A stretch of DNA of 64,000 nucleotides from Minisyncoccia bacterium (GCA_049287045.1 JBAQFC010000001.1:67309-131308); one strand, 5' to 3'; counted from the stretch's first letter, positions 22,381 through 64,000 are shown. Program-made: numbers and translations. The notes: generated by a model from the sequence alone, not told the origin.

Positions 22381-23155
22381 CTGCGTTAGGTCTTGCCTAA
22401 CGCAGAACTTTGTAATTTAGCCAATCAAAAATTTCTTTCATAAAATACTCCTTTTTTGGAAAATAATTTGGGAAAGATTTTATATCTATTATTTTATTCT
22501 GTGGTCTTTTCTTTTCAATAAAATCTAGATAACTTGAGTAACTATAATTACTTAAATATATTATAGATTCTATTTTATTTTTTATTTCTTTTTCTTTCCA
22601 GTCTTTATCTATCAATTTTATTGGATTTAAATGAATATATGAAAATAAGTATTTTAAATAATTATCATTGTCTGCATGCTCAGATTTAAACTTTCCTTCA
22701 AAAAGTCCACCAGTTCTTTTGTATTTATTATTGTAGTACATAGCATAAGCTGTGCTTAATTTTTGCATAAATTTACTTATTCCACCTTCAATTTTTTCTG
22801 TTATTAAAATATGAAAATGATTCGGCATTAGACAATATGCACCAATGGCAACTAAATTATTTATTCTTTCAATTTCATAAATATCAAAATCTTTATTTCT
22901 TTTAAGATCATATAAATTAAAATTTTGATCTGTATTTGATATGAAAAGTAAACTTATAAAATAATTATAATCTTGTTTGTCTTGGAATATTCTTTGTTTA
23001 CTATTACCACGATTATATATATGATAATATTCGCCTTCAACAAAATTTACTTTGCGTATAGACATACAATAAATTTATCATAATCACTCCGCATTAGGCA
23101 ATTTACGTTAGGCAAGACCTAACGCAGCATTACGAACAGAGACCTAACGCAGACT
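22381..23155 (-). mobile_element. IS200/IS605-type or RAYT-like element: a Y1 HUH transposase gene bounded by inverted REP-type hairpins
   Basis: The left end is CTGCGTTAGG-TCTTG-CCTAACGCAG (22381-22405). The right end is its reverse complement CGTTAGG-CAAGA-CCTAACGCAG (23106-23127), with partial extra copies at 23089-23101 and 23140-23155. Confidence 0.7.
22397..23065 (-). CDS. IS200-like/REP-associated tyrosine (Y1, HUH) transposase
   Basis: GEYYHIYNRGNSKQRIF...AYCLMPNHFHILI (HuH motif), with the catalytic Tyr region in the C-terminal half. Confidence 0.8.
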   Translation of the reverse strand: MSIRKVNFVEGEYYHIYNRGNSKQRIFQDKQDYNYFISLLFISNTDQNFNLYDLKRNKDFDIYEIERINNLVAIGAYCLMPNHFHILITEKIEGGISKFMQKLSTAYAMYYNNKYKRTGGLFEGKFKSEHADNDNYLKYLFSYIHLNPIKLIDKDWKEKEIKNKIESIIYLSNYSYSSYLDFIEKKRPQNKIIDIKSFPNYFPKKEYFMKEIFDWLNYKVLR

Positions 23156-42449: not shown

Positions 42450-42471
42450 TTTTACTCAACTTTTTATTAAA

Positions 42472-42507: not shown

Positions 42508-42520
42508 ATAATAGTTTACT

Positions 42521-43159
42521 ATGATACTAAATTTTATATTTTCACATTTAAATACGATTGCTTTAGGGGTATGGGTGGCATTTTTGGTGGTTATTGCTAT
42601 TCGTTTTTTCCGACCAGCTTGGTTGAGAAATATTTCTTATTCAAAACTTATTTTAGTTGCTATAGGATTAAATATTTTTTATGGTTTGTTTGTGAGTTGG
42701 GGACAATATCATGTATGGGCATCAGCCAATGATTTTACCAGATCACTTGTAAATTTACCTTTACCAAAAGAGGTGCCAATGTCTTATCTTTTTGAATGGA
42801 CAAGACCATTATTTCAGAATCATTTAGGATATTTCCTGTATTATATTATAGGACGTGTTTGGTTAAATATTTTCGTCTCATTTTTAATTTCAGGAGCAGT
42901 TTATCTTCTATTTAGAATTTGGAATTCTTACCGTGGTGGTTTTATAGAAAAAGGTCCTGAATTATTATTAATTTTGATGTTGATTTCTGGTTTTCCAGAT
43001 ATTATGATTTTAATTCCTCTTGGTTTTATTTTTGCAATTTTTTTGTTTACTTTTTACTATTTTAAAAAGGGTCACAAGAATGTAGAAATTGAACCAGCTT
43101 TTATTTTTGCAACTCTTTTCGCTTTATTATTTACAAATATTATTTTGAGTTTGATTTAG
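42521..43159 (+). CDS. Polytopic membrane protein of unknown function in the pilus locus
   Basis: 212 aa with about 6 TM helices. Confidence 0.4.
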   Translation: MILNFIFSHLNTIALGVWVAFLVVIAIRFFRPAWLRNISYSKLILVAIGLNIFYGLFVSWGQYHVWASANDFTRSLVNLPLPKEVPMSYLFEWTRPLFQNHLGYFLYYIIGRVWLNIFVSFLISGAVYLLFRIWNSYRGGFIEKGPELLLILMLISGFPDIMILIPLGFIFAIFLFTFYYFKKGHKNVEIEPAFIFATLFALLFTNIILSLI

Positions 43160-43176
43160 TAAAAGATGCCACTTGA

Positions 43177-43221
43177 CCCACATGTCCGACATGTGGGATC
43201 CCCACATGTCGGACATGTGGG
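43177..43221. repeat. Two tandem copies of the 21-nt palindromic repeat CCCACATGTC(C/G)GACATGTGGG immediately upstream of the pilB promoter
   Basis: Copies at 43177-43197 and 43201-43221, separated by 3 nt. Same family as 19465-19485. Confidence 0.75.
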
Positions 43222-43272
43222 TTTATGAAGGTTTGTCTTTTATATTTTGCTGTAAATTGGTATAATCTCTTC

Positions 43273-44982: not shown

Positions 44983-45023
44983 CCACATATCGGACATGAG
45001 GGAATCTCATGTCCGATATGTGG
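44983..45023. repeat. 41-nt perfect palindrome CCACATATCGGACATGAG-GGAAT-CTCATGTCCGATATGTGG, a variant of the CCCACATGTCSGACATGTGGG family
   Basis: It starts 1 nt after the pilB stop codon. Its half-sites resemble the 21-nt repeat. Confidence 0.7.
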
Positions 45024-45053
45024 ACGACGTGTTATTAATGAATAATAATTTTT

Positions 45054-46262: not shown

Positions 46263-46263
46263 T

Positions 46264-47580: not shown

Positions 47581-47621
47581 GACCAGTGCTTTAGGCGCTC
47601 GGAGCGCCTAAAGCACTGGTC
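47581..47621. repeat. 41-nt perfect palindrome GACCAGTGCTTTAGGCGCTC-G-GAGCGCCTAAAGCACTGGTC (REP-like, with no U-run)
   Basis: Perfect 20-bp arms. It shares the 12-mer CCAGTGCTTTAG with the hairpin cluster at 63766-63786. Confidence 0.7.
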
Positions 47622-49041: not shown

Positions 49042-52000
49042 ATGAAAAAAATTATAAAAAAAATAAATTTAAGTCGGTTTAATTTATTCTTGGTAGTTCT
49101 ACTTCTTGGAGTAGTTTCTTTTTCATTCGTGAAACTTGTTTTTGCATCCACTCCGGATACCACTAAACCGAATCCTGGACAAGCATGGAATGAGATCGGC
49201 AACGGAAGTTTTCAGATCAGCGGACCTACTGGTGGACCCACAGTTCCCAAAACTTTTATTTTTCCTGATGTTGATAATACTTATGTCATCACTGCACCGA
49301 CTCCGGTTGGAACAACAGGACAAGTTCTTACTTCCACAGGAGCTCTCGGTCAACAATCCTGGGCGACACCAACTTTCGGTAATGTCAATGGTACTGGTAC
49401 GACAAATTTTATAACCAAGTGGAACGATGCTGTCGGTACTTTAGTAAATTCTTTAATTTTTGATAATGGAACAAATGTCGGTATCGGAACAACAGCACCA
49501 GCTACACCTTTTCAAGTTGGACAAAGTGGTACAAATAAAAATTCAAGATTTTGGGGGAACATAGATGTAAATGGAGGAGGTTCATTAACTTTTGGATCTG
49601 GAGATTCTTCTATCGGATATCCTTCTGGTTATAATTTGGCTTTCAATACTTACAACGGAAGTCTGACCGAAAAAATGAGAATCACGTCCGTTGGTAATGT
49701 TGGTATTGGAACCACGAATCCATCAATGTCACTAGATGTAAAAGGTTCAGGTGCTGGACACGTTATAATGGGTAGTTGGGCTTCAAATGGAGCTTACGGA
49801 GTACTTAGTCTGAATGGTTTAAATGATACAGGTTCCAATTTTTATAGTGCAGCAGGAGGTCCTCTTTATATTAATCGTCCAACAGGACAAGGTCTATATT
49901 TTAGAGAAAATAATGCTGATCAAATGACCATTCTAAATGGTGGCAATGTTGGTATTGGAACAGTAACTCCAGGAGCAAAATTGGACGTAGAAAATCTTTC
50001 TGCTGGAATCAACGAAGGGATTCGATTATCTCATGCAAATGCTTATGATGCAGGATCCAAGATTTCTTGGTGGATGGATAATGCTTCAGAAAGTGCAAAT
50101 ATCAAAAGTGCATGGTATCCGACTCCTACATCGAAATCGTATATTGCACTCTCTACCTATGGCCCGTCATTACTTGAGAGAATGAGAATAAATGGTGATG
50201 GTAATGTCGGTATTGGATCAACAGCACCAAACGAAAAGCTGGATGTTAAATCCGGTAATATTTCTATTTCTGATTCTGCTGGAAACGAACGCGGAAGATT
50301 TTGGAGTACAGATACAGGTGGTTCACCTTATGAAACAGGATTACAAACAAGTAATTATCACCTTGTGTTAGATGCTTCCGGTTCTGGACAAAATAATATT
50401 ATTATGCGAACAGGTTCAAGTACTGTTGGTACTGGTACTGAAAAATTAAGAATTACAGGTGCAGGTCTTGTCGGTATTGGAACATCAGCTCCTGCACAGC
50501 TTCTTCAAGTTGGTAGTGCGACTTCAACAGCCAATCAGTATTCAAGAATTGATTCCGCGGCAGCATATGATGCAGGATTAGAACTCGCATCTGCTGGTGC
50601 ATCAAAATGGACTATTTACAGACCAGGAGGTACAAATGATTTGAGGTTTTATGATGCTACTGCTACTGCAGGAGATAGGCTAACTATAAAAGCAAGCACT
50701 GGTAACGTCGGCATAGGCACCACAGCACCCACTGCAAAATTAGAACTCGGAGGTACGTCAGGTGTAGACGGTTTGAAATTCCCTGACGGAACTCTTCAGG
50801 TTACCGGAGCTTCTAGTGGAGTCAAATTACTTTCGAGTGGTACTGGCCTGACAATCAACGGAAATTCTGTAACGAGAACTGCAGTTAATGCTTGGGATGC
50901 TGAAGTATATAGTCAAGACGGTTATTCTGGTGGAGCCTATGCGTCTTATGTAGTTCGCAATCTGACTGGTGTTTATTATATGGTTGGTTTGAATACAGAC
51001 CCGACTTTAAATCCTAGTTACACTAGTATAGATTATGCTTGGTATGTGCTCAATAGTACAAGTGCTTCGATTTATGAAAGTGGTACCAACATTGCTCCTG
51101 CAATCACTACTATCGCTGTAGGTGATGTGCTTGCTGTGACTTATGATGGATCAAATATCAGATATCTCCAAAACGGAGTCGTAAAAAGAACAGTGCCGGT
51201 CATTATAACTCTTCCTCTTTATTTAGATTCTTCTTTCCACAGTGGAGCTGCGACACCGGATATTAGCAATATTCAATTCGGACCTATGAGTACTGGTTCT
51301 CAATGGGCTGCAAACGGAACAAGTATTTATTACAACGGTGGTAATGTTGGAATTGGAGTTACTGCACCAAGCAATAAATTAGAAATCAGTGGAGGAGATC
51401 TTATGGTTAACGGAGCTGGAGCTTCAAAAAGCCTATACTTAAATTATGATAAGACTAGCTTTCCAAATTATGCGAGTTCATTAACTCAAACAGGTGCTGC
51501 TGATGTTTCAGGTACGCGTGGACTTGTAATAAATGCTAACAGTGGTCAAGCAGTAACAAATTATGGTATTGGTTTTGCGATTGATGGGGCTAATAAAATG
51601 TTCCTCCAAGGAAGTAGCGGCAATGTCGGTATTGGTACTACAGCACCAACATCTAAATTAGAGGTATCAGCTGGAAATATTCAAATGAGTGATGGGTATC
51701 CAGTAACTTGGGGTGATACAGTCACACCTAGAGGTCAAATAGTTACTTTTTCAGCTTCTCCTGATAGAGGCTTAAGATACACTGCACAACCAGGAGGTGT
51801 TGGATGGTTTGGAGTTCACGATTTTTATGCGGCTGACGGAGTTGCTGGAACTACACCTACATTGGCAATGAGAATAAAAGATGGCAAAGTCGGCATTGGA
51901 ACGTCGGCACCGGTTGGCAAACTTAATGTAGTCGCTGCTTCTTCTAATGTATCACAGTCTGGGCAAGCTATCGGTTTTGGAAGTACGGCAGTTCCATCTG

Positions 52001-55000
52001 GTGTAACAATGGGTTGGAATGATAATAATTACGGATGGCTCCAGTCATGGAGCAGTACGCCACTCTATGTTAATGCGTTAGGAAATGATGTCATATTCAA
52101 TAGAGATAGTGGCAAAGTCGGTATTGGAAACACTGCACCATCCGAAAAGCTCGATGTCACAGGCAATGTTGAATTCTCAGGTGCTTTGATGCCAAACAAT
52201 CTTCCAGGATCTTCTGGTCAATTTTTGACCTCTGGTGGTGCTGGAGTTGCTCCAACATGGATTGCTGGTGTGACAGGAAGTGGCACGACCAATTATGTTA
52301 CAAAATGGACACCAAACGGTACCACTCTTGGTAATTCTTTGATTTTTGATAATGGTACAAATGTCGGTATCGGTACAACAACACCAGGAGCACAACTAGA
52401 AGTAAAGGGAAACGGAACCGCCAAAATATTAATTGGAGATATGAGCTATTCTAATTATGCTGGAATTTCATTAACTGGATTAACAACTGCTGGGAATTAC
52501 ACGTTATTAACGAGAGCTGCGGACCCTGATTTGTATATCAACAGACCATCTGGTTATGCAATGCAGTTTTCAGAAGCAAACGGTGTTCCTCAGATGTTTA
52601 TTAAAACCGGTGGTAACGTCGGTATTGGAACAACAGTACCAACTCAAAAATTAACCGTGAATGGTGCGATTACTCAAGGAACCAACGGAGCTTCTTGGAC
52701 TTTAGATACTTCCGTCGTTGCAAACGATTGGACAATGATTGGTTCCTCTGACTCTGTTACTCAGAGATATTTACACTTTGGTTATAGAGCAGCTGATGCA
52801 ATAGGAGGTGCATACACTGATAGTGCAAAAATAAACTTCTACACAGGAGGAGCTATTCTTGGAATCAACGGTGGTAAAGTTGGTGTTGGTGTAGCATTAC
52901 CTACAGCCAAGTTCCAAGTCGGAACATCTTCTTCTTCTGCGGGTGTAGATGTGTCAGTTATAGGTTCATTTGGAGGTAGTGTTGTAGGATCAGCTTATCC
53001 TCTAACTGTTTCAAATACTGCTGCTATAACCGTAGGAAATAAAGCATTGATGACGTATGTCATGGGACCTGCTTGGTCTTCTACTGCTTATGCTGGTGCA
53101 TATCTTGAAAACGTAGATGCGTCTACCTCATATGTTATTGGAACTTATCGTCCTTCTGATTCTCTAGCAGAAAGAATGAGAGTCACATCCAATGGAAATG
53201 TCGGAATTGGAAATACAGCACCACTTAATAAACTTACCGTAACAGCTTCCACTATGCCTACTGGACAAGGTGCATTTTCTGCATCAAACACTTCAACTTC
53301 TGGAACTCAATATGGTCTTGCTGGTACAGCAACTGGTGCTAGTACGACAAATGTTGCTGGTTACTTTAGTGCCTCAGGTGCGACAAACAATTATGGTTTA
53401 ATTGTTAATAGTGGTCTTGTTGGTATTGGTACACAAACACCATCTTTTCCTTTGGAAATTGTCAAAGCTGCACCTCTTGGTACACAATTGGCTTTAACTC
53501 AATCTGCTGGAAATACAACAGGATTGTTGGCATGGACTGGTGGATCTTTTTATATACAAACAGGTTCGAAATATGATTCGTCTGCTGCTTGGGTTAGTAC
53601 CAACGGCACAACAGTCGGTAACCAAGGGTATTCTTATTTCGGTCAAGACGGGTCTGTTTCACTCGGTATGGTTTCTAGTGCTCTTACTGGTACTACTATT
53701 TCTTCATGGAGAACTTCTCCATTTCAGTTGACTGCTGCAGGCAATCTAGGTCTTGGTGGTATTACTCCAACAGTTGCACTTGAAGTTTTAGGTAGTACCA
53801 CAAACAGTTCTGTAAAAGTTCGTGGAATAGAAATACAAGGTTATGCAGTGAACAATGAATGGATAGGTGAAAATATTTATTATAGTGGAGGATGGAAATA
53901 TCGAGCTAACGGTTTTGGAAATCAGATATATTTCGGTGGTAGTGCTACCGGCGATATTTCATTTTACACTGCGCCAAATAATGTCGGTGGTGCAGGTGCA
54001 GCTGCTACTCTTACAAATCGTTTTACAATTACTCCTGGTGGCAGTATCGGTATAGGTACAACAAACCCAGGTGCAGCCCTAGAAGTAAATGGTCAAGTGA
54101 AAATCACCGGAGGTACTCCAGGTGCTGGCGAAGTTCTTACTTCAGATGCAGTTGGTTTAGCTACATGGGTTCTTCCCGTAGCATCAGTCACAGGTACAGG
54201 TACACAAAATTATGTAACTAAATGGAATAATGCAGGAGGTACTGCTATTGGTAACTCTTTGGTTTTTGATAATGGAACAAATGTTGGTATAGGTACAACA
54301 GCACCAGGATATAAATTAGATGTTTCAACAACTGGACCTGGTGGAATGCATGTTGCTACAAACACTTCTACTGCTGCTAATCCATCATTTTATTTGACAG
54401 ATGCAGCTGCGAGTTATTCTGATTTTGAAATTTATTCTGATGCTACTAATGTTAAATTAGGACCTTATCTTGATAAGGGTATTCAGTTTGTTGGTAATGC
54501 CGGAACTGAAACAAAAATGACAATTGATAGCTCAGGCAACGTAGGTATAGGCACAACAGCAGCAACACTACTAGATGTAAAAGGTGCTTCACCTATAATC
54601 CAGGTACAAGATAATGCCGCAGGTTATGCTATCACTCGTTACCGAGCTGGTGGTTCTGGAGTAAGTGATGCTTATTTTGGAGTTGATGCTGGAGTCGTGG
54701 GTTTGATTACTGGTGGCGGAGGAATTCCTTATGCTGCTGTTATCTCTCGTCAGGGCGCATACCCAGTGCAATTTGGAACAAACAACCTTGCTCGAATGAC
54801 GATAAGTAGTGCTGGACTTGTTGGTATTGGATTAACAAACCCAACAGCTCCTCTAGAAATAAACGATAGTACATGGACCACTGCTTCTGTCCGACCAACT
54901 GTTTTGAAACTAGGTTCTTATACTGATGCTGCAAACGAAGGTCCATTTATAGACTTCACTTCACGATGGACTGGTCTTTATCAGGATTGGGTTGTAGGAC

Positions 55001-58000
55001 GTATCGGTGGCGTCTATGATAATTCTGTTGCAAACGGTGGAGCATTAGTTTTCTATACAAACTACGGTGTTGGAGCAGCCAGTGCGACAGTGAAAGAACA
55101 AATGAGAATTAATCCACTCGGCAATGTTGGTATTGGTACATCATTACCTGATGTACTTGGTTTAGCAGCAGGTCATACTTCTCTTACCCTTGCAGGAGCT
55201 ACTGGTGATTTTTATGCAAATTTTGAGCTTCAAGGACACAGAGGTGTAGGAGGTAACCAGGTTGGTACAATATCTTTCTTTCAAGACACAACTAGAACCG
55301 CATTGATTAGTGTTAATAATGGAGTCTCTGCTTTAGATGAAAGTTCTATGACATTTTTTACTAAAACAACTGGTGTTGCAATGGGAGAAAGAATGAGAAT
55401 TGATAAAGCAGGCAACGTCGGTATTAGAAATACAGCACCATTAGAACTCTTATCTCTCGGAACAGCTGGAACAACAGCTGGTATATTGTCTTTTGCAGGA
55501 GCGACTTCCGGTAAAGCAATCCTTCAAGCAACAGCAGCAGCTGGCACTCCCACTCTCAATCTTCCAACCACATCTGGAACACTTGCTCTTACATCCGATG
55601 TACCAGGAACAATCTACGATTCTACATGGCAGAGAATAGTAAATCCTGGTGGAGCATATTATTCTTCAACCGGATCTTTGGGAACTGGTGCAATAGCCAT
55701 CAATCTTCCTGTCGGAATGGGAAACCAAATGATCAGTATGACCATAAAGGTTTATGAATACGCGACCAACGAGTCATTTGAAATTCATGCTGGAGGATAT
55801 ATGTACACCTCAGGTAATACCTGGGCAAATAATCCATTTGCTTATATCGTAGGAAATCCAGGAGTTGATAGAAGATTTACAGTAAGATTTGGTTATACAG
55901 CTGGAGGTAAAGCTGTTGTTTATATTGGTGAGACTGGATCCACATGGGCATATCCTCAGGTGGCAGTCACCGATGTCTTTGTTGGTTTCCAGGGTCAATC
56001 AGTTGCTCTTACTACTGGTTGGTCAGTTGGTTTTGCAACTGCTTTTGAAAACGTTACAGCTACTGTTACTAACACTCAGGTTGGTTATGCTCTTAGTACC
56101 AACACAGCCAATACCACTGTATTGCGAGATGCTTCAGGCAATTTCGCTGCTGGAGTTATAACTGCTAATTTAAGCGGTTATAAAAACATAGATAATGGTA
56201 ATGAGATAACCATTGCTAATGGTTTCGCTGGTGGTGCTTTATATTTGAACTATCGTGGTGCTTCTAGTGCAATTACTTCATTAAATATTATGAATGGTAT
56301 GTCAGGTGGCGTTTATGCAAATGTTCAGGCATTAGCTTTCGTAAAATCAGGAGGTACAGCTGCTCAGTTTTTAAAAGCAGACGGAAGTGTTGATTCAAAT
56401 GTGTACATGACTTCTGGTAGTCAATGGACAACTTCAGGAACAAATCTTTACGATTCTTTGGCAGGCAATGTTGGTATTGGATCAACAAACCCAGTTAATA
56501 AACTTGAGGTAGCATCTTCCACTATGCCTACTGGGCAAGGTATAATTACTGCGTCAAATACTTCAACAGCAGGAACTCAATATGGTATTGCTGGTACAGC
56601 AACTGGTGCTAGTACGACAAACGTTGCAGGCTACTTTAGCGCCTCGGGTGCTACAAATAATTATGGTTTGATTGTTAACGGTGGTCTTGTGGGTATAGGA
56701 ACACAAACACCAACTTATCCACTTTCAATCGTATCAAGCACAGCTGGTAAAGCTTATGGTGATTTAGAGATTCAAGATACGGGCACGGACGGTCCATATT
56801 TAACTTTCCATGACCCAGGTTCTATGGCATGGTCTATGGGAGTCACAAACAGTACACAAAATTTATCTATAAGACAAAATAATATAACTGGAACTGCAGC
56901 AATGACTATTCTAAATACGAGTGGCAACGTCGGTGTTGGTGTATCTCCATCAGAAAAGTTAGATGTTTATGGAAATGCTATATTTGGAAGTAACGCTGCA
57001 AACTCATATATTGGAATAAGAAGACCCGACGGTTCGGTTACCGCAACATTTAAAATAGCTACTGATACTGCAGGACTTTTAATTAAGCAAGGTGGTGGTG
57101 GTTCTTATATCGATTTTAGTACAAATGCCACAACAAACGCAGTTAGAATTATAGATAATGGCTACGTCGGTATCGGAACGACGGCGCCAACCAATAACCT
57201 GCATGTTCTAGGTGTCGGTCCTGGACACCTCATCCGTTCTGAAACTACCGCAGCGACTGGAGATGGTTACAGTGGTATTCAATTGACTGCAGGAAGCCGC
57301 TCAGGGTATTTGTTTGTTGCAAATCAAACTGGTACGAGTTATGGAGGTGACGGTGGCTTAAATATGTACAGTTCCAATGGTCCATTATTGTTCTGGCCAG
57401 GTGCTGTTGAGAAGATGAGGATTTTAGCAAACGGTAATGTCGGTATTGGAGTCACAGCTCCACCAGTTAAATTATCCGTCGGTGCGGTTACTTCAGGATA
57501 CGGAATGATTGGAGTAAAACAAACAAGTCCATTGAACTACAATGGTATCTGGGTTGAATCTTCAACAAATTCTAAATCTGTAACTATTGGTCATACTGGT
57601 GTTTATGGTTCAATTGGCACGAACTATGCTACTGGTGGTGATGCCCCTTATTCAAACTTAGTTCTTAATGAAGGTGGCGGCAACGTCGGTATTAGAAATA
57701 CAGCACCATTGGAACTCTTGTCTATTGGAACCTCTGGAACAACGGCTGGTGTATTATCCCTTGCCGGAGCAACATCCGGTAAAGCAATCATTAATGTTCT
57801 AGCAGCAGCTGGCACTCCCACCCTCACTCTTCCCACAACAACCGGAACTTTGGCTCTTTTGACTGATATGCCAGCTAATATATCTTTGGTTACTACAGGA
57901 GGTGCGACAGTAAATGGTAACGATGTAACAAATGGTGGAGCTGGATCTTGGACTAGTGATGTATATAGTAAAGATGGTTTTGTCGGTGGAGCATATGTAT

Positions 58001-61000
58001 CAGCTGTAGTTGATTCTATTGCTACTTCATATATGATTGCTCTTAATACTGATCCAACTCTAAACAATTCTTATACTTCTTTGGATTATGCTTGGTATGT
58101 GACAAGTAGTTCCAATGGTTATATTTATGAAAGTGGAGTAAATCCTCAAACAGGTATTACTCTAGCTGTCGGAGATGTTTTGGCTATTGTCTATGATGGT
58201 ACCAATGTTAAGTATCTACGAAATGGAGTTGTCCAAAGAACTGTTGCTGCAGTCATAACAGCTCCACTTTATTTTGATTCCTCTTTCGGTACTGTAAGTC
58301 CTACTTCTACATTTAGTCATATTCAAATTGGATCAATGAGTGTTGGCTCTCAATGGGCTGCAAACGGAACAAGTATTTATTACAACGGTGGCTACGTAGG
58401 TATTGGAACTTCAACACCAGATGCACCACTACACGCAAAAGGTGGTACAGCAATGTCGTCTGGTTGGAATAGAACAGCGACATTAGAAGCCACATTTCCT
58501 GGCCTTATATTTAACAGTAATAATACAAAATGGGGTGGTATTGTGTATGATTACAGTTCAAACATGATTATTAGAGTTGGAGCAACAAGTAATGATATTA
58601 TGGGAACTGGAGTAAGTGCTTTGAGCTTTAATGCAACAACAGGCGCAGCATCTTTTGGGTCAACTATTACATCTGGTTTAATCAACGGACAAACAATCTC
58701 AAGTGCTGCGAATTTTACGGGTACATTGGCTGCAGCGACATCCGTTAATACTAATAATTTTATCGTGAATACAGGAACCGGGTATGGTCTTTGTTTCTGG
58801 TCTAGTTGTGCTAATTGGAACATTAGTATGGGAAATACAGCAGAGTATCATTATGGACCAGTAACAGATTACGCTATAAAAACGAGCATGGATAGTGTAG
58901 CAGGAAGAGGTTGGACATGGGGAACAGTCGGTGTGATTCCTGTAGCTGCCTTGAGTAATACTGGAGTAATGCAAATAGCTGGAACAATGACTGCATCGTC
59001 TTTGATTAAATCAGGAGGTACAGCTGCTCAGTTCTTGAAAGCTGATGGATCTGTTGATTCTTCAACTTATATAACCGCTTCTGCTCTTTCCGGTTATGTC
59101 ACTTCCGCAGCTCCGTCATTCTCCGGATCTTTGAAACGTACAGCACCTGGAACAGGTTATCTAGACGGAAACGGTGTTGAAGTACCGAGCGTAAACACTG
59201 GTGTTATTTATTCTGCTAATCCTTCTCCAGTTGGTGGTAATGCACCTACAGCAACATCTTTAAATACAATGATTGGTATGGGCTTTACAACCGGAAATAT
59301 CGCTGGTATTAGTGCAACTTACGCTGGAACTGCAGCTCATTGGGGTCAATATGTCGTTGCTAATCAAACTGGTATAGTTTTCTTGGATGCAACAGATGGA
59401 AATATTTATAATACTGGTGGTATGGTCAACGGACAAACTATCACAAGTGCTGCGAACTTTACAGGTTCTTTGACTGTTGCTGGTAATACTACATTGGGAG
59501 GTACTTCTAACTTTACAGTAAATAGTGCTAGATCTTCAGGTATGTTCTTGAAAGCTGATACTATTGATTCTCAAGCTTCAGGTGATCCATTAGAACTTCA
59601 ATACGGAATTCCAGGAGACGTTGTTGTGTTTGGTACCGATAGTAACTTACAAGTTCAAGGTACAGGTACTTCTGCTTTTGCTGGAGTTGTTACTGTTAGT
59701 GGTCTTACTTTAAATACTAATCGTGTGAATATGACAAGTGGAACCAATCTTCATCTTGACCCATTTTCTACTGGAGCTGTTTACCTAGCTTATTATACTG
59801 GAACAGGAGGAACAGTGTTTGGAAATGGTGCAAATGGTGCAAGTGGTGCAAATGTTTCTTCTACTGGTGTAGTCACTGGAACAAACTTTTCCGGTCCTGG
59901 AACAGGTCTTACAGGTACAGCAGCGAGTTTGACTACTGGATATATATCATCTCCTGATGGAGATCGTGTTGCTGGTAATAAATTACCTACAACTACTCCA
60001 CAGGCAGTTAGATTTGACTTTTCTACTGCTGCTTCTGCTGGTATGCCAGGTGGAAACTATGCAGGTGTTATGACATATGCTGTTTGGACTGGAACAACTG
60101 CTTCGACAGGGGATGCATCATACCAATTAGCTTTCGGTAGTACGGCTGCGAATGGTGGTGGAACTCCAGTATTAAATATTCGAAAGGGTATAGATAGTAC
60201 ATGGAACTCTTGGTATAACATTATTACTTCTGCGAACATTGCCTCTCAAGCAGTAGGTACTGCAACCAATGCAACTAACGCAAGCACTATATTGTCAACT
60301 ACAGATTCAACAACTAACTCACTTATCCCTGTACTTTTTGGGGGAAGTTGGATGACTACTGGTCAAGTAAACGTAAAAAATAATCCATACCTTTACTATA
60401 ATCCAAGTACCAGTACATTTTATACTCCTAATGAAGAAATTGGAACCAGTTCTATGACATCTCTTAATGTTACAAGTGATTATCTTGGTAATAATAAAAG
60501 AATGTTTGCAACTGCTGACTCTTGGCTTCGTTTTAACGGTAGTAATGATTTCACTTCCGGTATTTATGCTGGTACAGGAATTTTTAGAACTGACGGAAAT
60601 CTACAAGTAGGATCAGGCGGTGCTTCATTTAATGTTACTGCTGCTGGTGCAGTCACTGTTCTTGGTGGTATTGCTCTTAATACCAACGGAGCATCTGGTG
60701 TTGGTTTAAAGTTGGGTGCCACAGGTTCTGAAGCAAGTATTATTTCCAATTCATCTACAGGTCATTTGGATATTACTCCACGTTCTGGCTATAATGCAAT
60801 TTTTACTGCTGGTAAGGTTACTATGGGATCTACATCATCACCAGCAAGTAATAGTACGCTAAATGTCTTTACTCCTGCTGCTACTGGTGGTGGTGTTAGA
60901 ATTGATAAAATATCAGGTTATCAAACAGTATTTTTGGGTGATGGTGGAAGTGCCACTTCTCATGGTGTTCTTCAATTGTATACATCAGGAACAATGTCTA

Positions 61001-61602
61001 CTCAAATTTATGCAGGAGGAAATTCATTCTTTAATTCGTCAGGTAACCTTGGTGTTGGTATTACTGCTCCAACTGATAAATTGAGTGTTGTTGGTAATAT
61101 TAGAACAACAGGTTGTTTATATTATGCGTCTTCATCATTAGGTACTTGTGCATCTGATAAACAAATTAAAAAAGATATTCATCCATACAATCTTGGTCTT
61201 AATGCTTTACTCGGTATTAATCCTGTGCAGTTTAAATACAATGGTCTAGGTGGTTTCCAAGATGATGGTAGTACACAACTCGGAGTTGTTGCCCAAGATA
61301 TTGAAAAAACAACACCTGATTTGGTTAAAAGCTTAATGGTCCAACTTCATAAGGATGATAAAAATCAAACAGAGATAAAGTCGGTTGATTACGGTGCTTT
61401 CACTTATGTTATTATTAATTCTATTAAAGAATTTTATGTTAAGTTTACAAATGAAGTAGCAAGTATCTCTGATAAACTTGTTGCGATAGTTAATCGTATC
61501 AATGGTCACGATATAAAAATTAAAGAACTTGAGAAACAAAACAATGATCTTAAATCTCTAGTTTGTATAGATCATCCAACAGCAGCAATCTGTAAAAAAT
61601 AA
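49042..61602 (+). CDS. Giant (4186 aa) secreted fibrous repeat protein with a C-terminal peptidase-S74-type intramolecular chaperone/auto-processing domain (phage tail-fibre or endosialidase type)
   Basis: N-terminal signal/TM. More than 40 copies of a module ending ...GNVGIGTT(A/N)P...KL(D/E)V. Two copies of a 140-aa jelly-roll-like domain (DYAWYV...GDVLA..YDG.N..YL.NGV). The C-terminus, ASDKQIKKDI.PYNLGLNALLGINPVQFKY...LGVVAQDIEKTTPDLV...VDYGAFTYVIINSIKEF....E...L, matches the S74 intramolecular chaperone autocleavage domain. Confidence 0.85.
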   Translation: MKKIIKKINLSRFNLFLVVLLLGVVSFSFVKLVFASTPDTTKPNPGQAWNEIGNGSFQISGPTGGPTVPKTFIFPDVDNTYVITAPTPVGTTGQVLTSTGALGQQSWATPTFGNVNGTGTTNFITKWNDAVGTLVNSLIFDNGTNVGIGTTAPATPFQVGQSGTNKNSRFWGNIDVNGGGSLTFGSGDSSIGYPSGYNLAFNTYNGSLTEKMRITSVGNVGIGTTNPSMSLDVKGSGAGHVIMGSWASNGAYGVLSLNGLNDTGSNFYSAAGGPLYINRPTGQGLYFRENNADQMTILNGGNVGIGTVTPGAKLDVENLSAGINEGIRLSHANAYDAGSKISWWMDNASESANIKSAWYPTPTSKSYIALSTYGPSLLERMRINGDGNVGIGSTAPNEKLDVKSGNISISDSAGNERGRFWSTDTGGSPYETGLQTSNYHLVLDASGSGQNNIIMRTGSSTVGTGTEKLRITGAGLVGIGTSAPAQLLQVGSATSTANQYSRIDSAAAYDAGLELASAGASKWTIYRPGGTNDLRFYDATATAGDRLTIKASTGNVGIGTTAPTAKLELGGTSGVDGLKFPDGTLQVTGASSGVKLLSSGTGLTINGNSVTRTAVNAWDAEVYSQDGYSGGAYASYVVRNLTGVYYMVGLNTDPTLNPSYTSIDYAWYVLNSTSASIYESGTNIAPAITTIAVGDVLAVTYDGSNIRYLQNGVVKRTVPVIITLPLYLDSSFHSGAATPDISNIQFGPMSTGSQWAANGTSIYYNGGNVGIGVTAPSNKLEISGGDLMVNGAGASKSLYLNYDKTSFPNYASSLTQTGAADVSGTRGLVINANSGQAVTNYGIGFAIDGANKMFLQGSSGNVGIGTTAPTSKLEVSAGNIQMSDGYPVTWGDTVTPRGQIVTFSASPDRGLRYTAQPGGVGWFGVHDFYAADGVAGTTPTLAMRIKDGKVGIGTSAPVGKLNVVAASSNVSQSGQAIGFGSTAVPSGVTMGWNDNNYGWLQSWSSTPLYVNALGNDVIFNRDSGKVGIGNTAPSEKLDVTGNVEFSGALMPNNLPGSSGQFLTSGGAGVAPTWIAGVTGSGTTNYVTKWTPNGTTLGNSLIFDNGTNVGIGTTTPGAQLEVKGNGTAKILIGDMSYSNYAGISLTGLTTAGNYTLLTRAADPDLYINRPSGYAMQFSEANGVPQMFIKTGGNVGIGTTVPTQKLTVNGAITQGTNGASWTLDTSVVANDWTMIGSSDSVTQRYLHFGYRAADAIGGAYTDSAKINFYTGGAILGINGGKVGVGVALPTAKFQVGTSSSSAGVDVSVIGSFGGSVVGSAYPLTVSNTAAITVGNKALMTYVMGPAWSSTAYAGAYLENVDASTSYVIGTYRPSDSLAERMRVTSNGNVGIGNTAPLNKLTVTASTMPTGQGAFSASNTSTSGTQYGLAGTATGASTTNVAGYFSASGATNNYGLIVNSGLVGIGTQTPSFPLEIVKAAPLGTQLALTQSAGNTTGLLAWTGGSFYIQTGSKYDSSAAWVSTNGTTVGNQGYSYFGQDGSVSLGMVSSALTGTTISSWRTSPFQLTAAGNLGLGGITPTVALEVLGSTTNSSVKVRGIEIQGYAVNNEWIGENIYYSGGWKYRANGFGNQIYFGGSATGDISFYTAPNNVGGAGAAATLTNRFTITPGGSIGIGTTNPGAALEVNGQVKITGGTPGAGEVLTSDAVGLATWVLPVASVTGTGTQNYVTKWNNAGGTAIGNSLVFDNGTNVGIGTTAPGYKLDVSTTGPGGMHVATNTSTAANPSFYLTDAAASYSDFEIYSDATNVKLGPYLDKGIQFVGNAGTETKMTIDSSGNVGIGTTAATLLDVKGASPIIQVQDNAAGYAITRYRAGGSGVSDAYFGVDAGVVGLITGGGGIPYAAVISRQGAYPVQFGTNNLARMTISSAGLVGIGLTNPTAPLEINDSTWTTASVRPTVLKLGSYTDAANEGPFIDFTSRWTGLYQDWVVGRIGGVYDNSVANGGALVFYTNYGVGAASATVKEQMRINPLGNVGIGTSLPDVLGLAAGHTSLTLAGATGDFYANFELQGHRGVGGNQVGTISFFQDTTRTALISVNNGVSALDESSMTFFTKTTGVAMGERMRIDKAGNVGIRNTAPLELLSLGTAGTTAGILSFAGATSGKAILQATAAAGTPTLNLPTTSGTLALTSDVPGTIYDSTWQRIVNPGGAYYSSTGSLGTGAIAINLPVGMGNQMISMTIKVYEYATNESFEIHAGGYMYTSGNTWANNPFAYIVGNPGVDRRFTVRFGYTAGGKAVVYIGETGSTWAYPQVAVTDVFVGFQGQSVALTTGWSVGFATAFENVTATVTNTQVGYALSTNTANTTVLRDASGNFAAGVITANLSGYKNIDNGNEITIANGFAGGALYLNYRGASSAITSLNIMNGMSGGVYANVQALAFVKSGGTAAQFLKADGSVDSNVYMTSGSQWTTSGTNLYDSLAGNVGIGSTNPVNKLEVASSTMPTGQGIITASNTSTAGTQYGIAGTATGASTTNVAGYFSASGATNNYGLIVNGGLVGIGTQTPTYPLSIVSSTAGKAYGDLEIQDTGTDGPYLTFHDPGSMAWSMGVTNSTQNLSIRQNNITGTAAMTILNTSGNVGVGVSPSEKLDVYGNAIFGSNAANSYIGIRRPDGSVTATFKIATDTAGLLIKQGGGGSYIDFSTNATTNAVRIIDNGYVGIGTTAPTNNLHVLGVGPGHLIRSETTAATGDGYSGIQLTAGSRSGYLFVANQTGTSYGGDGGLNMYSSNGPLLFWPGAVEKMRILANGNVGIGVTAPPVKLSVGAVTSGYGMIGVKQTSPLNYNGIWVESSTNSKSVTIGHTGVYGSIGTNYATGGDAPYSNLVLNEGGGNVGIRNTAPLELLSIGTSGTTAGVLSLAGATSGKAIINVLAAAGTPTLTLPTTTGTLALLTDMPANISLVTTGGATVNGNDVTNGGAGSWTSDVYSKDGFVGGAYVSAVVDSIATSYMIALNTDPTLNNSYTSLDYAWYVTSSSNGYIYESGVNPQTGITLAVGDVLAIVYDGTNVKYLRNGVVQRTVAAVITAPLYFDSSFGTVSPTSTFSHIQIGSMSVGSQWAANGTSIYYNGGYVGIGTSTPDAPLHAKGGTAMSSGWNRTATLEATFPGLIFNSNNTKWGGIVYDYSSNMIIRVGATSNDIMGTGVSALSFNATTGAASFGSTITSGLINGQTISSAANFTGTLAAATSVNTNNFIVNTGTGYGLCFWSSCANWNISMGNTAEYHYGPVTDYAIKTSMDSVAGRGWTWGTVGVIPVAALSNTGVMQIAGTMTASSLIKSGGTAAQFLKADGSVDSSTYITASALSGYVTSAAPSFSGSLKRTAPGTGYLDGNGVEVPSVNTGVIYSANPSPVGGNAPTATSLNTMIGMGFTTGNIAGISATYAGTAAHWGQYVVANQTGIVFLDATDGNIYNTGGMVNGQTITSAANFTGSLTVAGNTTLGGTSNFTVNSARSSGMFLKADTIDSQASGDPLELQYGIPGDVVVFGTDSNLQVQGTGTSAFAGVVTVSGLTLNTNRVNMTSGTNLHLDPFSTGAVYLAYYTGTGGTVFGNGANGASGANVSSTGVVTGTNFSGPGTGLTGTAASLTTGYISSPDGDRVAGNKLPTTTPQAVRFDFSTAASAGMPGGNYAGVMTYAVWTGTTASTGDASYQLAFGSTAANGGGTPVLNIRKGIDSTWNSWYNIITSANIASQAVGTATNATNASTILSTTDSTTNSLIPVLFGGSWMTTGQVNVKNNPYLYYNPSTSTFYTPNEEIGTSSMTSLNVTSDYLGNNKRMFATADSWLRFNGSNDFTSGIYAGTGIFRTDGNLQVGSGGASFNVTAAGAVTVLGGIALNTNGASGVGLKLGATGSEASIISNSSTGHLDITPRSGYNAIFTAGKVTMGSTSSPASNSTLNVFTPAATGGGVRIDKISGYQTVFLGDGGSATSHGVLQLYTSGTMSTQIYAGGNSFFNSSGNLGVGITAPTDKLSVVGNIRTTGCLYYASSSLGTCASDKQIKKDIHPYNLGLNALLGINPVQFKYNGLGGFQDDGSTQLGVVAQDIEKTTPDLVKSLMVQLHKDDKNQTEIKSVDYGAFTYVIINSIKEFYVKFTNEVASISDKLVAIVNRINGHDIKIKELEKQNNDLKSLVCIDHPTAAICKK

Positions 61603-61630
61603 TCTAAAATTAAAAAATACTATTAAAAAT

Positions 61631-61665
61631 AGGCTAGATTCTGAAAAGAATCTAGCCTATTTTAT
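61631..61665 (+). terminator. Rho-independent terminator of the giant gene
   Basis: AGGCTAGATTC-TGAAAA-GAATCTAGCCT followed by ATTTTATTT. Confidence 0.75.
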
Positions 61666-61694
61666 TTGACAAAATCATAAAATATTGCTATTAT
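61666..61694 (+). promoter_or_regulatory. Sigma70 promoter TTGACA-17-TATTAT
   Basis: TTGACA at 61666-61671 and TATTAT at 61689-61694. The extended sequence is nearly identical to the promoter at 20283. Confidence 0.55.
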
Positions 61695-61752
61695 TTAGGT
61701 AATTAAATTTTCTTTTACAAAAAAATAACTAACCCTAAAAAACTCAGAAACG

Positions 61753-63675
61753 ATGAAAACTAAAAGAATGTTACTCGTAGTTGCTTTCGCAACTCTAAAT
61801 TTTCAATTTTTAAACACATTAAAAGCTCAAGTTAGTTTTTCTTCTCCTGCAACTTTTGCAGTAGGAGGTCAACCTTTTTCACCCGTTAGCGCAGATTTTA
61901 ATGGAGACGGTAATCTTGATTTAGCTGCAACTAATAATAATAGCAATGATGTTCAAATATTACTAGGTAATGGTACAGGTGGATTCGGTGCTGCTTCTAG
62001 TTTTATTATTTCTTCTTATTCTGTTTCAATCACAAGTGCAGATTTCAATGGAGACGGCAAGGCTGATTTAGCGACTGCTAATCAAGGTTCAAATAGTGTT
62101 TCTGTTTTATTCGGTAATGGTTTAGGTGGTTTTGATACTGCTACTAATTTTACTGTTGGTAGCGGACCTATTTGGATTATTAATACAGATCTCAATGGAG
62201 ACGGTAAAGTTGACTTAGTAATAGTTAACCAAAATTCAAACAATGTTTCCGTGTTAATGAATGATAGTACAGGTGGATTTGGTATTGCTACTAATTTTTT
62301 GGTAGGTTCCAATCCATATTCAGTCACAAGTGCAGATTTCAATGGAGACGGCAAAGCTGATTTAGCGACTGTTAATCAAGGAGCAAACAATGTATCAATT
62401 TTGTTAGGTGATAGTACAGGTGGATTTGGTATTGCTACTAATTTTTCAGTAGGCACTTCTCCTATGGGGATTACTAGTGCGGACTTTAACGGAGATGGAA
62501 AAATTGATTTAGTAACAGCTAATTCAAATAATAATAATGTTTCTATCTTATTAGGTACTGGGTCAGGTAGTTTTAGTTCTGCTATTAATTTTTTAGTTGG
62601 TACTACTCCTTTTTCAATTTCAAATGCGGACTTTAACGGAGATGGAAAAATTGATTTAGTTACTGCCAACCAAGGTTCGAATGATGTCTCAATATTACTA
62701 GGTAATGGTACAGGTAGTTTTGGTACTACTAATAACTTTTCAGCATGTAGTAGTCCTCGTTCAGTTATTTGTGCAGATTTCAATGGAGATGGAAATATAG
62801 ATTTGTCTGTAGGAACTCAGTATTCTAATAATATTTCTATATTGTTTAATACCTCTCTTCCAACTAGTGCTCCAATCTGTTTAATTACCGTAGACCCAAC
62901 AAACACTCACAATGTAATTGTTTGGGAAAAAAGTAGTTTGAATTTAGCACCGATTGATAGCTTCATTGTTTACCGTGAAATTTCTACTAACGATTATCAG
63001 CAAATAGGAGCTGTATCAAAGGATTCTTTAAGTGTTTTTAATGATATTGTAAATCCGTCAACGACGGGTTATCGATACAAATTAAAAGTAAAGAACACCT
63101 CGGGTATCAGTTCCAATTTCAGCAGTTATCATAATACTATTTATCTCACCAATATCGGCCCCAACTTCAGTTGGACACCGTATCAGGTAGAGAACAATAC
63201 GACACCGGTAGCCAATTACAATGTCTACCGAGATGATAGCTTATCTGGAGTTTTCAATCTGATAGGGAACACGACCGGTAACCAGTTTGGTTATACTGAT
63301 GTAAATTTTTCTTCTTTCCCGTATGCGCAGTATTATGTAGAAGCTGTGATGGTATCTGGATCTTGTTTTCCGACCAGATCAGGTTTCGGTACTGCCCGTA
63401 GTAATATCAAAGGTTTTGGAATTACTGGATTGCAGGAATTACCTTTTGCGAAAGTAAAAGTGTACCCGAATCCCACCAGAGATATTTTAAATATCGAAGG
63501 TATTACCGACAAAACTATACTGCATTTATATGATGTAGTAGGGAAGTTAGTAATGGAGAAAGAAGTAGAAAACAACACTACGATAAACACAAGTGAACTC
63601 GTAGATGGGATCTATACACTTTCAACAGAAACTAAAGGGGGTAGAATATTTAATAAAATAGTGGTAAACCACTAA
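61753..63675 (+). CDS. Secreted FG-GAP/VCBS-repeat protein with an Ig/FN3-like region and a T9SS-type C-terminal sorting domain (Por_Secre_tail-like)
   Basis: Signal peptide; at least 9 repeats of ADFNGDGK.DL..AN.GSN.VS.LLG (FG-GAP). The C-terminal 80 aa, KVYPNPTRDILNIEG....LHLYDVVGKLVMEKEV......NTSELVDGIYTLS.ETKGGRIFNKIVV, matches the CTD pattern. Confidence 0.75.
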   Translation: MKTKRMLLVVAFATLNFQFLNTLKAQVSFSSPATFAVGGQPFSPVSADFNGDGNLDLAATNNNSNDVQILLGNGTGGFGAASSFIISSYSVSITSADFNGDGKADLATANQGSNSVSVLFGNGLGGFDTATNFTVGSGPIWIINTDLNGDGKVDLVIVNQNSNNVSVLMNDSTGGFGIATNFLVGSNPYSVTSADFNGDGKADLATVNQGANNVSILLGDSTGGFGIATNFSVGTSPMGITSADFNGDGKIDLVTANSNNNNVSILLGTGSGSFSSAINFLVGTTPFSISNADFNGDGKIDLVTANQGSNDVSILLGNGTGSFGTTNNFSACSSPRSVICADFNGDGNIDLSVGTQYSNNISILFNTSLPTSAPICLITVDPTNTHNVIVWEKSSLNLAPIDSFIVYREISTNDYQQIGAVSKDSLSVFNDIVNPSTTGYRYKLKVKNTSGISSNFSSYHNTIYLTNIGPNFSWTPYQVENNTTPVANYNVYRDDSLSGVFNLIGNTTGNQFGYTDVNFSSFPYAQYYVEAVMVSGSCFPTRSGFGTARSNIKGFGITGLQELPFAKVKVYPNPTRDILNIEGITDKTILHLYDVVGKLVMEKEVENNTTINTSELVDGIYTLSTETKGGRIFNKIVVNH

Positions 63676-63679
63676 ATCT

Positions 63680-63801
63680 CCCAGCCAGCGCCTAAGGCGC
63701 TGGCTAAACAATACTAATCCCTTAAACTTAAAAAAGTTTAAGGGATTTTTTATTTCATCTTTACAGCCAGTGCTTTAGACTCTGGCCGGCGCTGGCTGGG
63801 G
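63680..63801. repeat. Cluster of REP-like hairpins between the FG-GAP gene and the second transposase, including one canonical terminator
   Basis: Hairpin AGCCAGCGCC-TAA-GGCGCTGGCT (63683-63705); terminator TCCCTTAAACTT-AAAA-AAGTTTAAGGGA followed by TTTTTT (63716-63752); GCCAG-N11-CTGGC (63766-63786); and GGCGCTGGCTGGG (63788-63800), which is complementary to 63680-63692. Confidence 0.65.
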
Positions 63802-63829
63802 ATATTTAGCATTATGATATAATTATTTT

Positions 63830-64000
63830 GTGAGAAAACAACCTCTTATAACAGGAGAATATTATCACATATATAATCGCGGCGTGGATAAACGTGATAT
63901 TTTTAACGATAAAAATGATGTTTATCGTTTTATTGAAAGTATGTCTGAGTTTAATCAAATTGATACGATAGGAAGTATAAGAGATAAAAGAAAGAATAAT
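63830..64000 (+). CDS. N-terminal part of a second IS200-like/RAYT-type Y1 transposase (GTG start). It runs off the window.
   Basis: The translation ...GEYYHIYNRGVDKRDIFNDKNDVYRFIE... parallels the N-terminus of the 22397-23065 transposase (GEYYHIYNRGNSKQRIFQDKQDYNYFIS). Confidence 0.6.
   Translation, partial: MRKQPLITGEYYHIYNRGVDKRDIFNDKNDVYRFIESMSEFNQIDTIGSIRDKRKNN

Follow-up and report, generated by a model that had tools for sequence, protein, structure and literature searches.

We analysed a 64,000-nt stretch of a contig from a Minisyncoccia bacterium (GCA_049287045.1, JBAQFC010000001.1:67309-131308), called the window below. At its 3′ end a gene for a 640-amino-acid (aa) secreted protein, which combines FG-GAP repeats with a type IX secretion system (T9SS) C-terminal sorting domain (CTD), is followed by GC-rich hairpins and by the start of a transposase. 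The hairpins resemble repetitive extragenic palindromes (REPs) and the enzyme resembles REP-associated tyrosine transposases (RAYTs); we call it RAYT#2, since a first such gene, RAYT#1, lies elsewhere in the window. We consider it likely that these are two unrelated neighbours, one a Bacteroidota-type adhesin gene that was acquired horizontally by a bacterium of the Candidate Phyla Radiation (CPR), and the other a resident CPR REP-RAYT#2 unit.

The FG-GAP protein carries a genuine T9SS sorting domain

An earlier reading of the window from its sequence alone (the sequence-only reading) had located a 640-aa open reading frame (ORF), and the gene is present at the stated coordinates (Table 1). 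Its FG-GAP repeats match PF13517 (FG-GAP_3) with 207 bits and PF01839 (FG-GAP) with 117.6 bits in Pfam. Each repeat carries a D-x-N-G-D-G-x-x-D loop, seen on inspection as seven D(F/L)NGDG(K/N)xD loops, and the seven together would probably form a seven-bladed β-propeller. The signal peptide has neither a Cys nor a lipobox, so the protein is not a lipoprotein. The β-rich middle module is the best conserved part, being 60-68% identical to Bacteroidota proteins and 81% identical to the closest ortholog, which lies on a Candidatus Paceibacterota contig (locus L007, the same as L001). Middle module and CTD together define the protein family.

The sequence-only reading had also assigned the C-terminus to the T9SS, and this assignment is correct. 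Residues 570-640 scored 48.8 bits against PF18962 (Por_Secre_tail; cut-off 27) and 40.5 bits against NCBIfam TIGR04183 (cut-off 23), thus exceeding both curated cut-offs. The domain ends 1-2 residues before the stop codon, at the extreme C-terminus of a protein that by inspection has an N-terminal signal peptide. A profile built from the C-terminal 276 aa matched the CTD of 8glk_D (E = 3.9e-8) and 8GLJ (5e-6) in the PDB. An AlphaFold2 (AF2) model of the same 276 aa was confident in the CTD only (module residues 203-276, predicted local distance difference test score 68-91) and left the middle module without a fold assignment. Using Foldseek, the CTD model superimposed on 8glk_D, the NucA CTD in the T9SS translocon, with a template-modelling (TM) score of 0.80 and a root-mean-square deviation of 2.5 Å, and on the mirolase and RgpB CTDs (8qb1, 0.69; 7pq4, 0.59). 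The model is a seven-stranded Ig-like β-sandwich, like the solved CTDs. Since the domain passed both profile thresholds, matched PDB profiles and superimposed on solved CTDs, we conclude that it is a genuine type-A T9SS CTD.

In Bacteroidota, the T9SS carries proteins across the outer membrane (PMC10994853, PMC10202324). The window protein has the same order of signal peptide, domain and CTD as known type-A cargo, such as F. johnsoniae NucA (SprA-PorV translocon, PDB 8GLK/8GLJ, PMC10994853) and RgpB (7PQ4), and the same C-terminal β-sandwich of about 70 aa. It differs in being encoded in a CPR genome, without obvious machinery for the canonical task of the CTD. A literature search for T9SS or CTDs in CPR/Patescibacteria returned nothing relevant.

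The CTD is being kept by selection

dN/dS was calculated by the Nei-Gojobori method between the window gene and its L007 ortholog, region by region. The ratio was 0.36 for the N-terminus, 0.30 for the distal FG-GAP repeats, 0.20 for the middle module and about 0.12-0.15 for the CTD, the last value being approximate because dS was saturated. All parts of the gene, CTD included, are under purifying selection, and the CTD is being kept.

We also considered whether the CTD has lost its role and is decaying as a relic. No other part of the gene differs as much in amino acids between the window and L007 (30%, versus 13% for the middle module), and the L007 copy has tolerated an in-frame REP insertion within the CTD; both observations would favour this reading. 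We nevertheless consider it unlikely. The CTD is intact in all three CPR copies (below), where it scores above the Pfam threshold, its fold is predicted confidently, and its dN/dS is low. At the protein level the CTD evolves 2.3 times faster than the middle module, while other family pairs of similar divergence range from 0.24 to 4; the ratio thus gave no sign of relaxed constraint specific to the CPR. The earlier suggestion that a CTD without a T9SS would be non-functional is, on this dN/dS and rate ratio, probably wrong.

The REP within the L007 CTD (L007/L001 positions 1912-1932, TGTCAAGGCTTAACCTTGACA) belongs to that genome's own family. It encodes CQGLTLT in place of about five ancestral codons, and the Por_Secre_tail match persists. 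Synonymous divergence between window 62845-63672 and L007 1261-2091 is uneven, with a dS of 0.09 at module codons 80-120, about 0.3-0.6 in the adjacent blocks and >1 in the CTD, and nucleotide identity ranges from 96% to 66%. The unevenness may have been caused by recombination among CPR lineages or by constraint acting on the nucleotide sequence.

The host is a CPR bacterium

The 146.6-kb contig is labelled Minisyncoccia by NCBI. All named matches of the DnaE protein encoded on it are Nomurabacteria, Paceibacterota or Patescibacteria (71-82% identity), and unnamed relatives reach 98%. The contig also encodes CTP synthase, HisRS, GAPDH, a split transketolase, an enolase-pyruvate kinase fusion and a type IV pilus cluster. 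Because of the label, the DnaE matches, the type IV pilus genes and the near-absence of Shine-Dalgarno (SD) sites, we conclude that the host of the FG-GAP gene is a CPR bacterium, with a genome of the Paceibacteria type.

That the host lies outside the Bacteroidota had already been argued from expression signals, namely AGGAGG SD sites and TTGACA/TATAAT promoters along the contig. The conclusion holds; the SD argument for it does not, since only 2 of 47 ORFs had an SD-like motif at positions -20 to -4. A good candidate promoter site lies 58 nt upstream of the ATG of the FG-GAP gene, with no SD downstream of it. In the region 61400-64000 sites of this type were not enriched (8 found, 10.8 expected from shuffled sequences). 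Many start codons lie a few bases 3′ of a TATAAT-like -10 box, often one preceded by TG (for example 10710, 31511, 40658 on the minus strand, and 63830). This arrangement suggests that leaderless mRNAs may be widespread in this CPR genome.

Homologs point to transfer from Bacteroidota

We scanned for homologs with the C-terminal 276 aa, which are more specific than the FG-GAP repeats, and kept one genome per species. The 22 genome loci recovered comprised 19 from Bacteroidota metagenome-assembled genomes (MAGs), two from CPR and one from Chitinophaga, the last a weak, partial match at the CTD end. Several of the Bacteroidota MAGs carry 3-4 paralogs of the C-terminal module. The CPR loci are L007, 81% identical, and L013 (the same as L149) in Candidatus Nomurabacteria nzgw476, 66% identical. 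All other named protein matches that carry the CTD were Bacteroidota. The closest labelled full-length proteins, from Bacteroidota MAGs (among them MES2139724.1, P0005, and MES2591124.1, P0053), share the architecture and a length of 640-653 aa; they are 52-60% identical over the full length and 60-68% over the C-terminal 276 aa. Unlike the window gene, theirs lie among other CTD-bearing cargo genes, as we saw beside the homolog at one Bacteroidota locus, and have no RAYT nearby.

A neighbour-joining tree of the 276 aa (200 bootstraps) joined the window and L007 as sisters in 200 of 200 replicates. In 131 of 200 they grouped with L013 in a clade that is nested within a mix of Bacteroidota and unlabelled sequences. 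Since 19 of the 22 loci are Bacteroidota and the CPR copies group inside the Bacteroidota radiation, the best reading is that the FG-GAP/CTD gene was transferred from Bacteroidota into CPR, most probably by horizontal acquisition as the sequence-only reading had proposed: the family is overwhelmingly Bacteroidota and the host is CPR. A single acquisition by a Paceibacteria ancestor, followed by divergence, would fit the tree, and two acquisitions are possible. On this reading the transfer was not recent, because the gene has a host-like composition, a sigma-70-like promoter and a dN/dS of 0.1-0.4 throughout.

The composition of the gene was compared with that of the contig. Its GC content of 0.354 and GC content at third codon positions (GC3) of 0.231 are within the range of the window genes. 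GC3 of the middle module and CTD (0.32-0.34) is just above the host maximum of 0.31, and that of the repeat region (0.15) equals the host minimum; the middle module and CTD resemble in this the Bacteroidota copies, which range from 0.21 to 0.39, and the Bacteroidota homolog loci have 33-40% GC. GC and codon usage thus do not discriminate foreign from host DNA for this gene, because donors and recipient are both low in GC.

The reverse history, in which the family is native to the CPR and spread from there to Bacteroidota, or is ancient in both, appears quite improbable to us. A native family could explain why the three CPR sequences may group together in one clade, why the composition of the gene suits this genome, and why unlabelled low-GC contigs branch beside the CPR clade. 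However, Bacteroidota loci outnumber the other CPR loci by 19 to 2 and have multiple paralogs per genome, Bacteroidota sequences branch both outside and around the CPR ones, and the CTD serves as signal for an outer-membrane machine of Bacteroidota (PMC10994853). Furthermore, the 90%-identity protein cluster contains a single sequence despite a genome with a 98%-identical DnaE in the database, which suggests patchy presence among close relatives. That genome is represented by a 148-kb contig (in the window itself, the DnaE gene, P0134, lies at 24336-27509), and the cluster of the FG-GAP protein (P0001) holds the window sequence only; the gene may be absent from, or unassembled in, this closest relative.

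Several points weigh against a Bacteroidota-to-CPR transfer of a functional secreted protein, or limit how far it can be specified. The tree was built by neighbour-joining from 276 aa, and only 65% of the bootstraps support one common CPR clade. Its nearest outside sequences, P0085 and P0038, come from unbinned contigs of about 29% GC. Composition is a weak signal only. The signal peptide was assigned by eye from the translation, and the CTD dN/dS suffers from the saturation mentioned above. Finally, the search for T9SS machinery genes (SprA/Sov, PorV, PorU, PorZ, PorK-N/GldK-N), which found none, covered the 31 ORFs scanned in the window, or about 8% of a genome of about 0.8 Mb.

The FG-GAP/CTD proteins that branch beside the CPR clade are encoded on L150 (ENA k141_538350) and L152, contigs of about 29% GC. 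Their neighbouring genes, including one for a 992-aa protein, gave almost no Pfam matches and no PHROGs matches. These contigs may belong to further CPR genomes, or else to a phage or mobile element not yet recognised as such.

A groundwater MAG survey places nzgw476 in the Paceibacteria, order UBA9983_A, family UBA9973, with a genome of 0.80 Mb that is about 97% complete. When donors are weighed against the number of MAGs recovered, it counts Bacteroidota as one of the more frequent sources, outside the CPR, of genes in groundwater Patescibacteria (PMC12455944). The transfer proposed here would involve the same donor and recipient phyla, in a dataset that includes the genome with the L013 copy. 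FG-GAP, T9SS and Por_Secre_tail are not mentioned in the text of that study that was searched. The present cargo-type gene is a new example.

A possible role for the protein in a CPR cell

On the preferred reading, a Paceibacteria-type CPR lineage would have acquired, most likely from Bacteroidota and not recently, the gene for a secreted, adhesin-like protein composed of a Sec signal, a predicted seven-bladed propeller, the middle module and the type-A CTD. At least one other CPR genome shares the gene at the same locus, and a third carries a more distant copy. Neither an outer membrane nor a T9SS is known from CPR cells. The protein would be exported by Sec across the single CPR membrane, and with neither of these present the CTD could not act as an outer-membrane translocation signal. 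We believe that it may be kept as a folded, Ig-like end domain needed by the rest of the protein or by its binding function.

The CTD might instead still meet a T9SS, that of a Bacteroidota host on which the CPR cell lives as an episymbiont. The tag on the CPR surface would then dock onto T9SS parts exposed in the outer membrane of the host, such as PorV-type shuttles or the attachment complex. Purifying selection on the CTD, its Bacteroidota origin, the neighbouring pilus cluster and the giant surface protein are compatible with this idea, which we regard as decidedly improbable. If it were true, the stolen gene would be a device for host recognition or attachment, and would point to Bacteroidota as the host.

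The giant protein is encoded directly upstream of the FG-GAP gene, at 49042-61602 (+). It is a secreted protein of 4186 aa, rich in GNVGIGTTAP-type repeats, with a C-terminal Peptidase_S74 intramolecular-chaperone domain (aa 4038-4096) like that of phage tail fibres. Its gene lies downstream of a pilus cluster (39201-47574) with PilM, pilins, PilB, PilC and a Gly-rich protein.

RAYT#2 and its hairpins probably form a resident CPR unit

The window contains only the first 57 codons of RAYT#2. The full protein, P0326, was recovered by using its relative on contig L129, to which it is 77% identical, as the query. P0326 has 223 aa, is annotated as a transposase of a Minisyncoccia bacterium, and is encoded on a contig of 146,619 bp, equal in length to that of the window; its first 57 residues are those of the window. 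P0326 scored 32.5 bits against PF01797 (cut-off 23), with an NHFH (H-x-H) motif and a conserved Tyr aligned. The sequence-only reading had estimated about 50% identity between the two Y1 transposases, and we found 52.6% over 38 aa, or 42% over 145 aa when full-length proteins were compared. The only and best NCBIfam match was NF047646 (REP_Tyr_transpos), for which RAYT#1 scored 40.9, the RAYT at L007 44.0 and the L129 relative of RAYT#2 20.4, all below the cut-off of 80. Judged by these scores, the three are RAYT-like and not members of the curated equivalog. Among 3,368 homologs in the RAYT#2 family, every named one is CPR. Within the library searched, no relevant paper on RAYTs in Patescibacteria, or on REP-RAYT systems in CPR genomes, was found.

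The GC-rich hairpin cluster reported immediately downstream of the FG-GAP gene was confirmed in the 154-nt spacer that follows the stop codon. All three copies of AGCCAGCGCC lie within 63683-63797. When the 19-mer CCAGCGCCTAAGGCGCTGG was searched with ≤3 mismatches, two sites were found in the window, at 63685 and 47583, versus 0 in 100 shuffles. REP A and REP B (Table 1) pair into a 138-nt compound hairpin (63672-63809), a doublet like those termed REPINs, and the region 63668-63815, folded as DNA, gave -40.8 kcal/mol (z = -10.1). Enclosed between them is the AT-rich, terminator-like hairpin of the FG-GAP gene with its T-run. At the Rfam gathering thresholds the window contained a tRNA-Gln only, and no match was found at the hairpins.

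The core hairpin CCAGCCAGCGCC-TAA-GGCGCTGGCTGG occurs on both flanks of RAYT#2. The 3′ REP, CCAGCCAGCGCCTAAGGCGCTGGCTGG, lies at the stop codon of the transposase, as seen in a contig from an independent Logan assembly (L153, about 1857-1883): there the gene ends ...TTA CCA GCC AGC GCC TAA GGCGCTGGCTGG, and the stop codon is the loop of the hairpin. The end of RAYT#2 would fall near 64501, outside the window and inside the 3′ REP. Part of the sequence beyond 64000 was obtained from P0326, L153 and a further Logan contig, L154. The core hairpin also recurs in low-GC metagenome contigs, with arm extensions beyond the search pattern (L078 has CCCAGCCAGCGCCTAAGGCGCTGGCTGGGG), and two of these contigs contain RAYT#2-family genes. 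In L129 the 77%-identical RAYT has the same hairpins on both flanks and other neighbours. In the roughly 65 kb covered, REPs occur at three loci, namely 47581, the cluster at 63680-63801 and the REP 3′ of the gene. The hairpins of RAYT#1, at 22227-22259, 22379-22407 (over its stop codon) and 23167-23194, are its own and unrelated. Thus the claims that the second transposase has its own REP family, and that the hairpins around the first differ from it, are both upheld.

An inverted arm of REP B is also found inside RAYT#2, at about codons 58-64 (TESKALA), and RAYT#2-family genes have an in-frame, REP-derived (P/S)KAL segment near residue 60. All four CPR RAYTs that we examined end inside their own 3′ REP hairpin, and two have their stop codon as its loop (window 22379-22407; L153 about 1857-1883; L001 2928-2948; L129 about 4000-4020).

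On the preferred reading RAYT#2 is the centre of a resident CPR REP-RAYT unit, with an HUH/Y1 transposase and cognate GC-rich hairpins on both sides, whose 5′ REP pair encloses the FG-GAP terminator and whose 3′ hairpin loop supplies the transposase stop codon. Its mRNA is probably leaderless. By analogy with characterised RAYTs, the enzyme would be expected to bind REP hairpins in single-stranded form, cut them and disperse them.

Known REP-RAYT and REPIN-RAYT systems of Proteobacteria (E. coli TnpA-REP with REP/BIME, i.e. bacterial interspersed mosaic elements, and Pseudomonas REPINs; PMC5581495, PMC3116915) likewise have an HUH/Y1 protein of about 220 aa flanked on both sides by its own GC-rich palindromes. 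As here, their REP doublets form a long hairpin, different RAYTs in one genome have their own REPs, and REPs lie at intergenic 3′ ends. The window unit differs in its distant similarity to NF047646 (20-44 bits, versus 80) and in the presence of at least two RAYTs in 64 kb of a genome that is probably about 0.8 Mb. The CPR units further differ in that each RAYT examined has its stop codon inside the 3′ REP, and that in-frame REP copies occur inside coding sequences.

The RAYT/REP element is very unlikely to be the vehicle of the FG-GAP gene

The sequence-only reading had proposed that the FG-GAP gene arrived on or near the RAYT/REP element. This carrier idea is unsupported, and we rejected it, because the RAYT#2 family is resident in CPR and absent beside the Bacteroidota homologs. 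We found no sign of RAYT#2 as a mover of the gene. A composite mobile unit that brought the gene in would account for the common layout of the window and L007, where in both cases the FG-GAP gene is followed by REP, terminator, REP and RAYT, and also for the REP copy inside the L007 CTD. However, the layout is built from different elements. The RAYT in the L007 slot belongs to the RAYT#1 subfamily (52% identical to RAYT#1 and 42% to RAYT#2), and its REP, TGTCAAGG-TTAAG-CCTTGACA, is unrelated. There is no REP upstream of the gene, and the 10 kb around each Bacteroidota homolog and around the Nomurabacteria (L013) copy contain no RAYT. Relatives of RAYT#2 with the same hairpins are found in unrelated contexts. 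In addition, RAYTs are described as typically single-copy and seem unable to replicate themselves, dispersing REPINs instead (PMC5581495). Transport as a composite unit is thus very unlikely. Since the layout is shared and the elements are different, the spacer after the FG-GAP gene suggests itself as a preferred landing site for RAYT/REP elements, not as part of a vehicle.

The locus is very unlikely to be an assembly artefact

Over window 62631-64000, contig L153 (run SRR28062869) matches with 100% identity, and beyond it reads through all of RAYT#2 into the gene that follows. At L007 the FG-GAP ortholog is followed by a RAYT and then by pilin-like genes. The L013/L149 copy has >68 kb of a 184-kb contig on each side of it and lies among purF, guaA, miaA and murA. 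The exact match of L153 argues against a chimera. Bacteroidota DNA wrongly joined to a CPR contig during assembly or binning could be suspected because the gene is near the window end, its closest labelled full-length relatives are Bacteroidota, and only 62 nt of the L007 contig precede its copy, so the upstream junction was not confirmed there; yet it is hardly credible, given that the independent assembly agrees over the 3′ half of the FG-GAP gene, the REPs, RAYT#2 and the next gene, that the named members of the downstream RAYT family are all CPR, that the upstream junction has a host-style terminator and promoter with host-like GC and codon usage, that two other CPR MAGs carry relatives on CPR contigs, and that the best Bacteroidota protein is only 60% identical, unlike contaminating reads from a co-assembled genome.

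Table 1. Features of the FG-GAP/RAYT#2 locus and related elements in the window
Feature	Position	Strand	Basis or remark
FG-GAP/T9SS-CTD gene, complete, 640 aa	61753..63675	+	identical to NCBI MFZ2205090.1 (Minisyncoccia MAG)
Sigma-70-like promoter candidate, TTGACA-17 nt-TATTAT, TG before -10	61666..61694	+	11/12 matches
Probable Sec signal peptide, MKTKRMLLVVAFATLNFQFLNTLKA/Q	61753..61830	+	translation inspected; conserved in L007 ortholog
Seven FG-GAP/VCBS repeats, 49 aa each	61831..62844	+	PF13517, 7 stretches; 147-nt period at the DNA level
β-rich middle module, ~200 aa	62845..63459	+	no Pfam family at threshold; strands predicted, low confidence
Type-A T9SS C-terminal sorting domain, aa 570-640	63460..63672	+	PF18962, TIGR04183, 8glk_D, AF2/Foldseek
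REP hairpin A, CCCAGCCAGCGCC-TAA-GGCGCTGGCT	63680..63705	.	identical extended hairpin in L078; related in L082, L045, L095
Intrinsic-terminator-like hairpin of FG-GAP gene, 14-bp stem then TTTTTATTT	63716..63752	+	enclosed by two REPs
REP B, CAGCCAGTGC..GCGCTGGCTGGGG	63764..63801	.	pairs with REP A
Extended -10 box, TGATATAAT	63815..63823	+	6 nt before RAYT#2 GTG; same arrangement in L129
RAYT#2, first 57 codons	63830..64000	+	starts GTG; runs off window
RAYT#1, 222 aa, different subfamily	22397..23065	-	PF01797, 39.9 bits
Diverged REP of the same family as REP A, GACCAGTGCTTTAGGCGCTC-G-GAGCGCCTAAAGCACTGGTC	47581..47621	.	perfect 20-bp stem, intergenic

Other features of the window

A single ORF of 690 aa (13022-15094, +) joins the N- and C-terminal domains of enolase to a pyruvate kinase barrel, so that two consecutive glycolytic enzymes are apparently fused. 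A superfamily-2 helicase (ResIII/DEAD/Helicase_C; 20401-22224, +) bears a sigma-70 region 4 domain at its C-terminus. In the spacer from pilM to the first pilin gene lies a GC-rich, imperfect hairpin (40717-40774) with 28-nt arms, CATTTTCCCCTGTCCCCGGTTTAGGGGA and TCCCCTAAACCGGGTATCGGGGAAAGTG, unrelated to both REP families.

Significance

CPR bacteria are believed to lead an attached life on other cells. To our knowledge, the hosts of Paceibacteria and the molecules used for attachment have mostly not been identified. A conserved, secreted, integrin-like protein of Bacteroidota origin, whose tag for a secretion machine found only in Bacteroidota is still intact and under constraint, is a concrete candidate host-interaction factor, and may give a hint at the organisms that this lineage has met. 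The finding changes no paradigm, as transfer from Bacteroidota to Patescibacteria is already documented. It does indicate that selection can maintain a "hallmark" sorting domain beyond the lineage that bears the machine, a point of importance wherever domains of this kind serve as markers of taxonomy or function. With the RAYT/REP unit, further REP-RAYT examples are added from streamlined genomes of the CPR. We regard the locus as a clean, moderately interesting case in which a CPR lineage has domesticated an adhesin of the Bacteroidota cargo type, beside an ordinary, little-described REP-RAYT unit.

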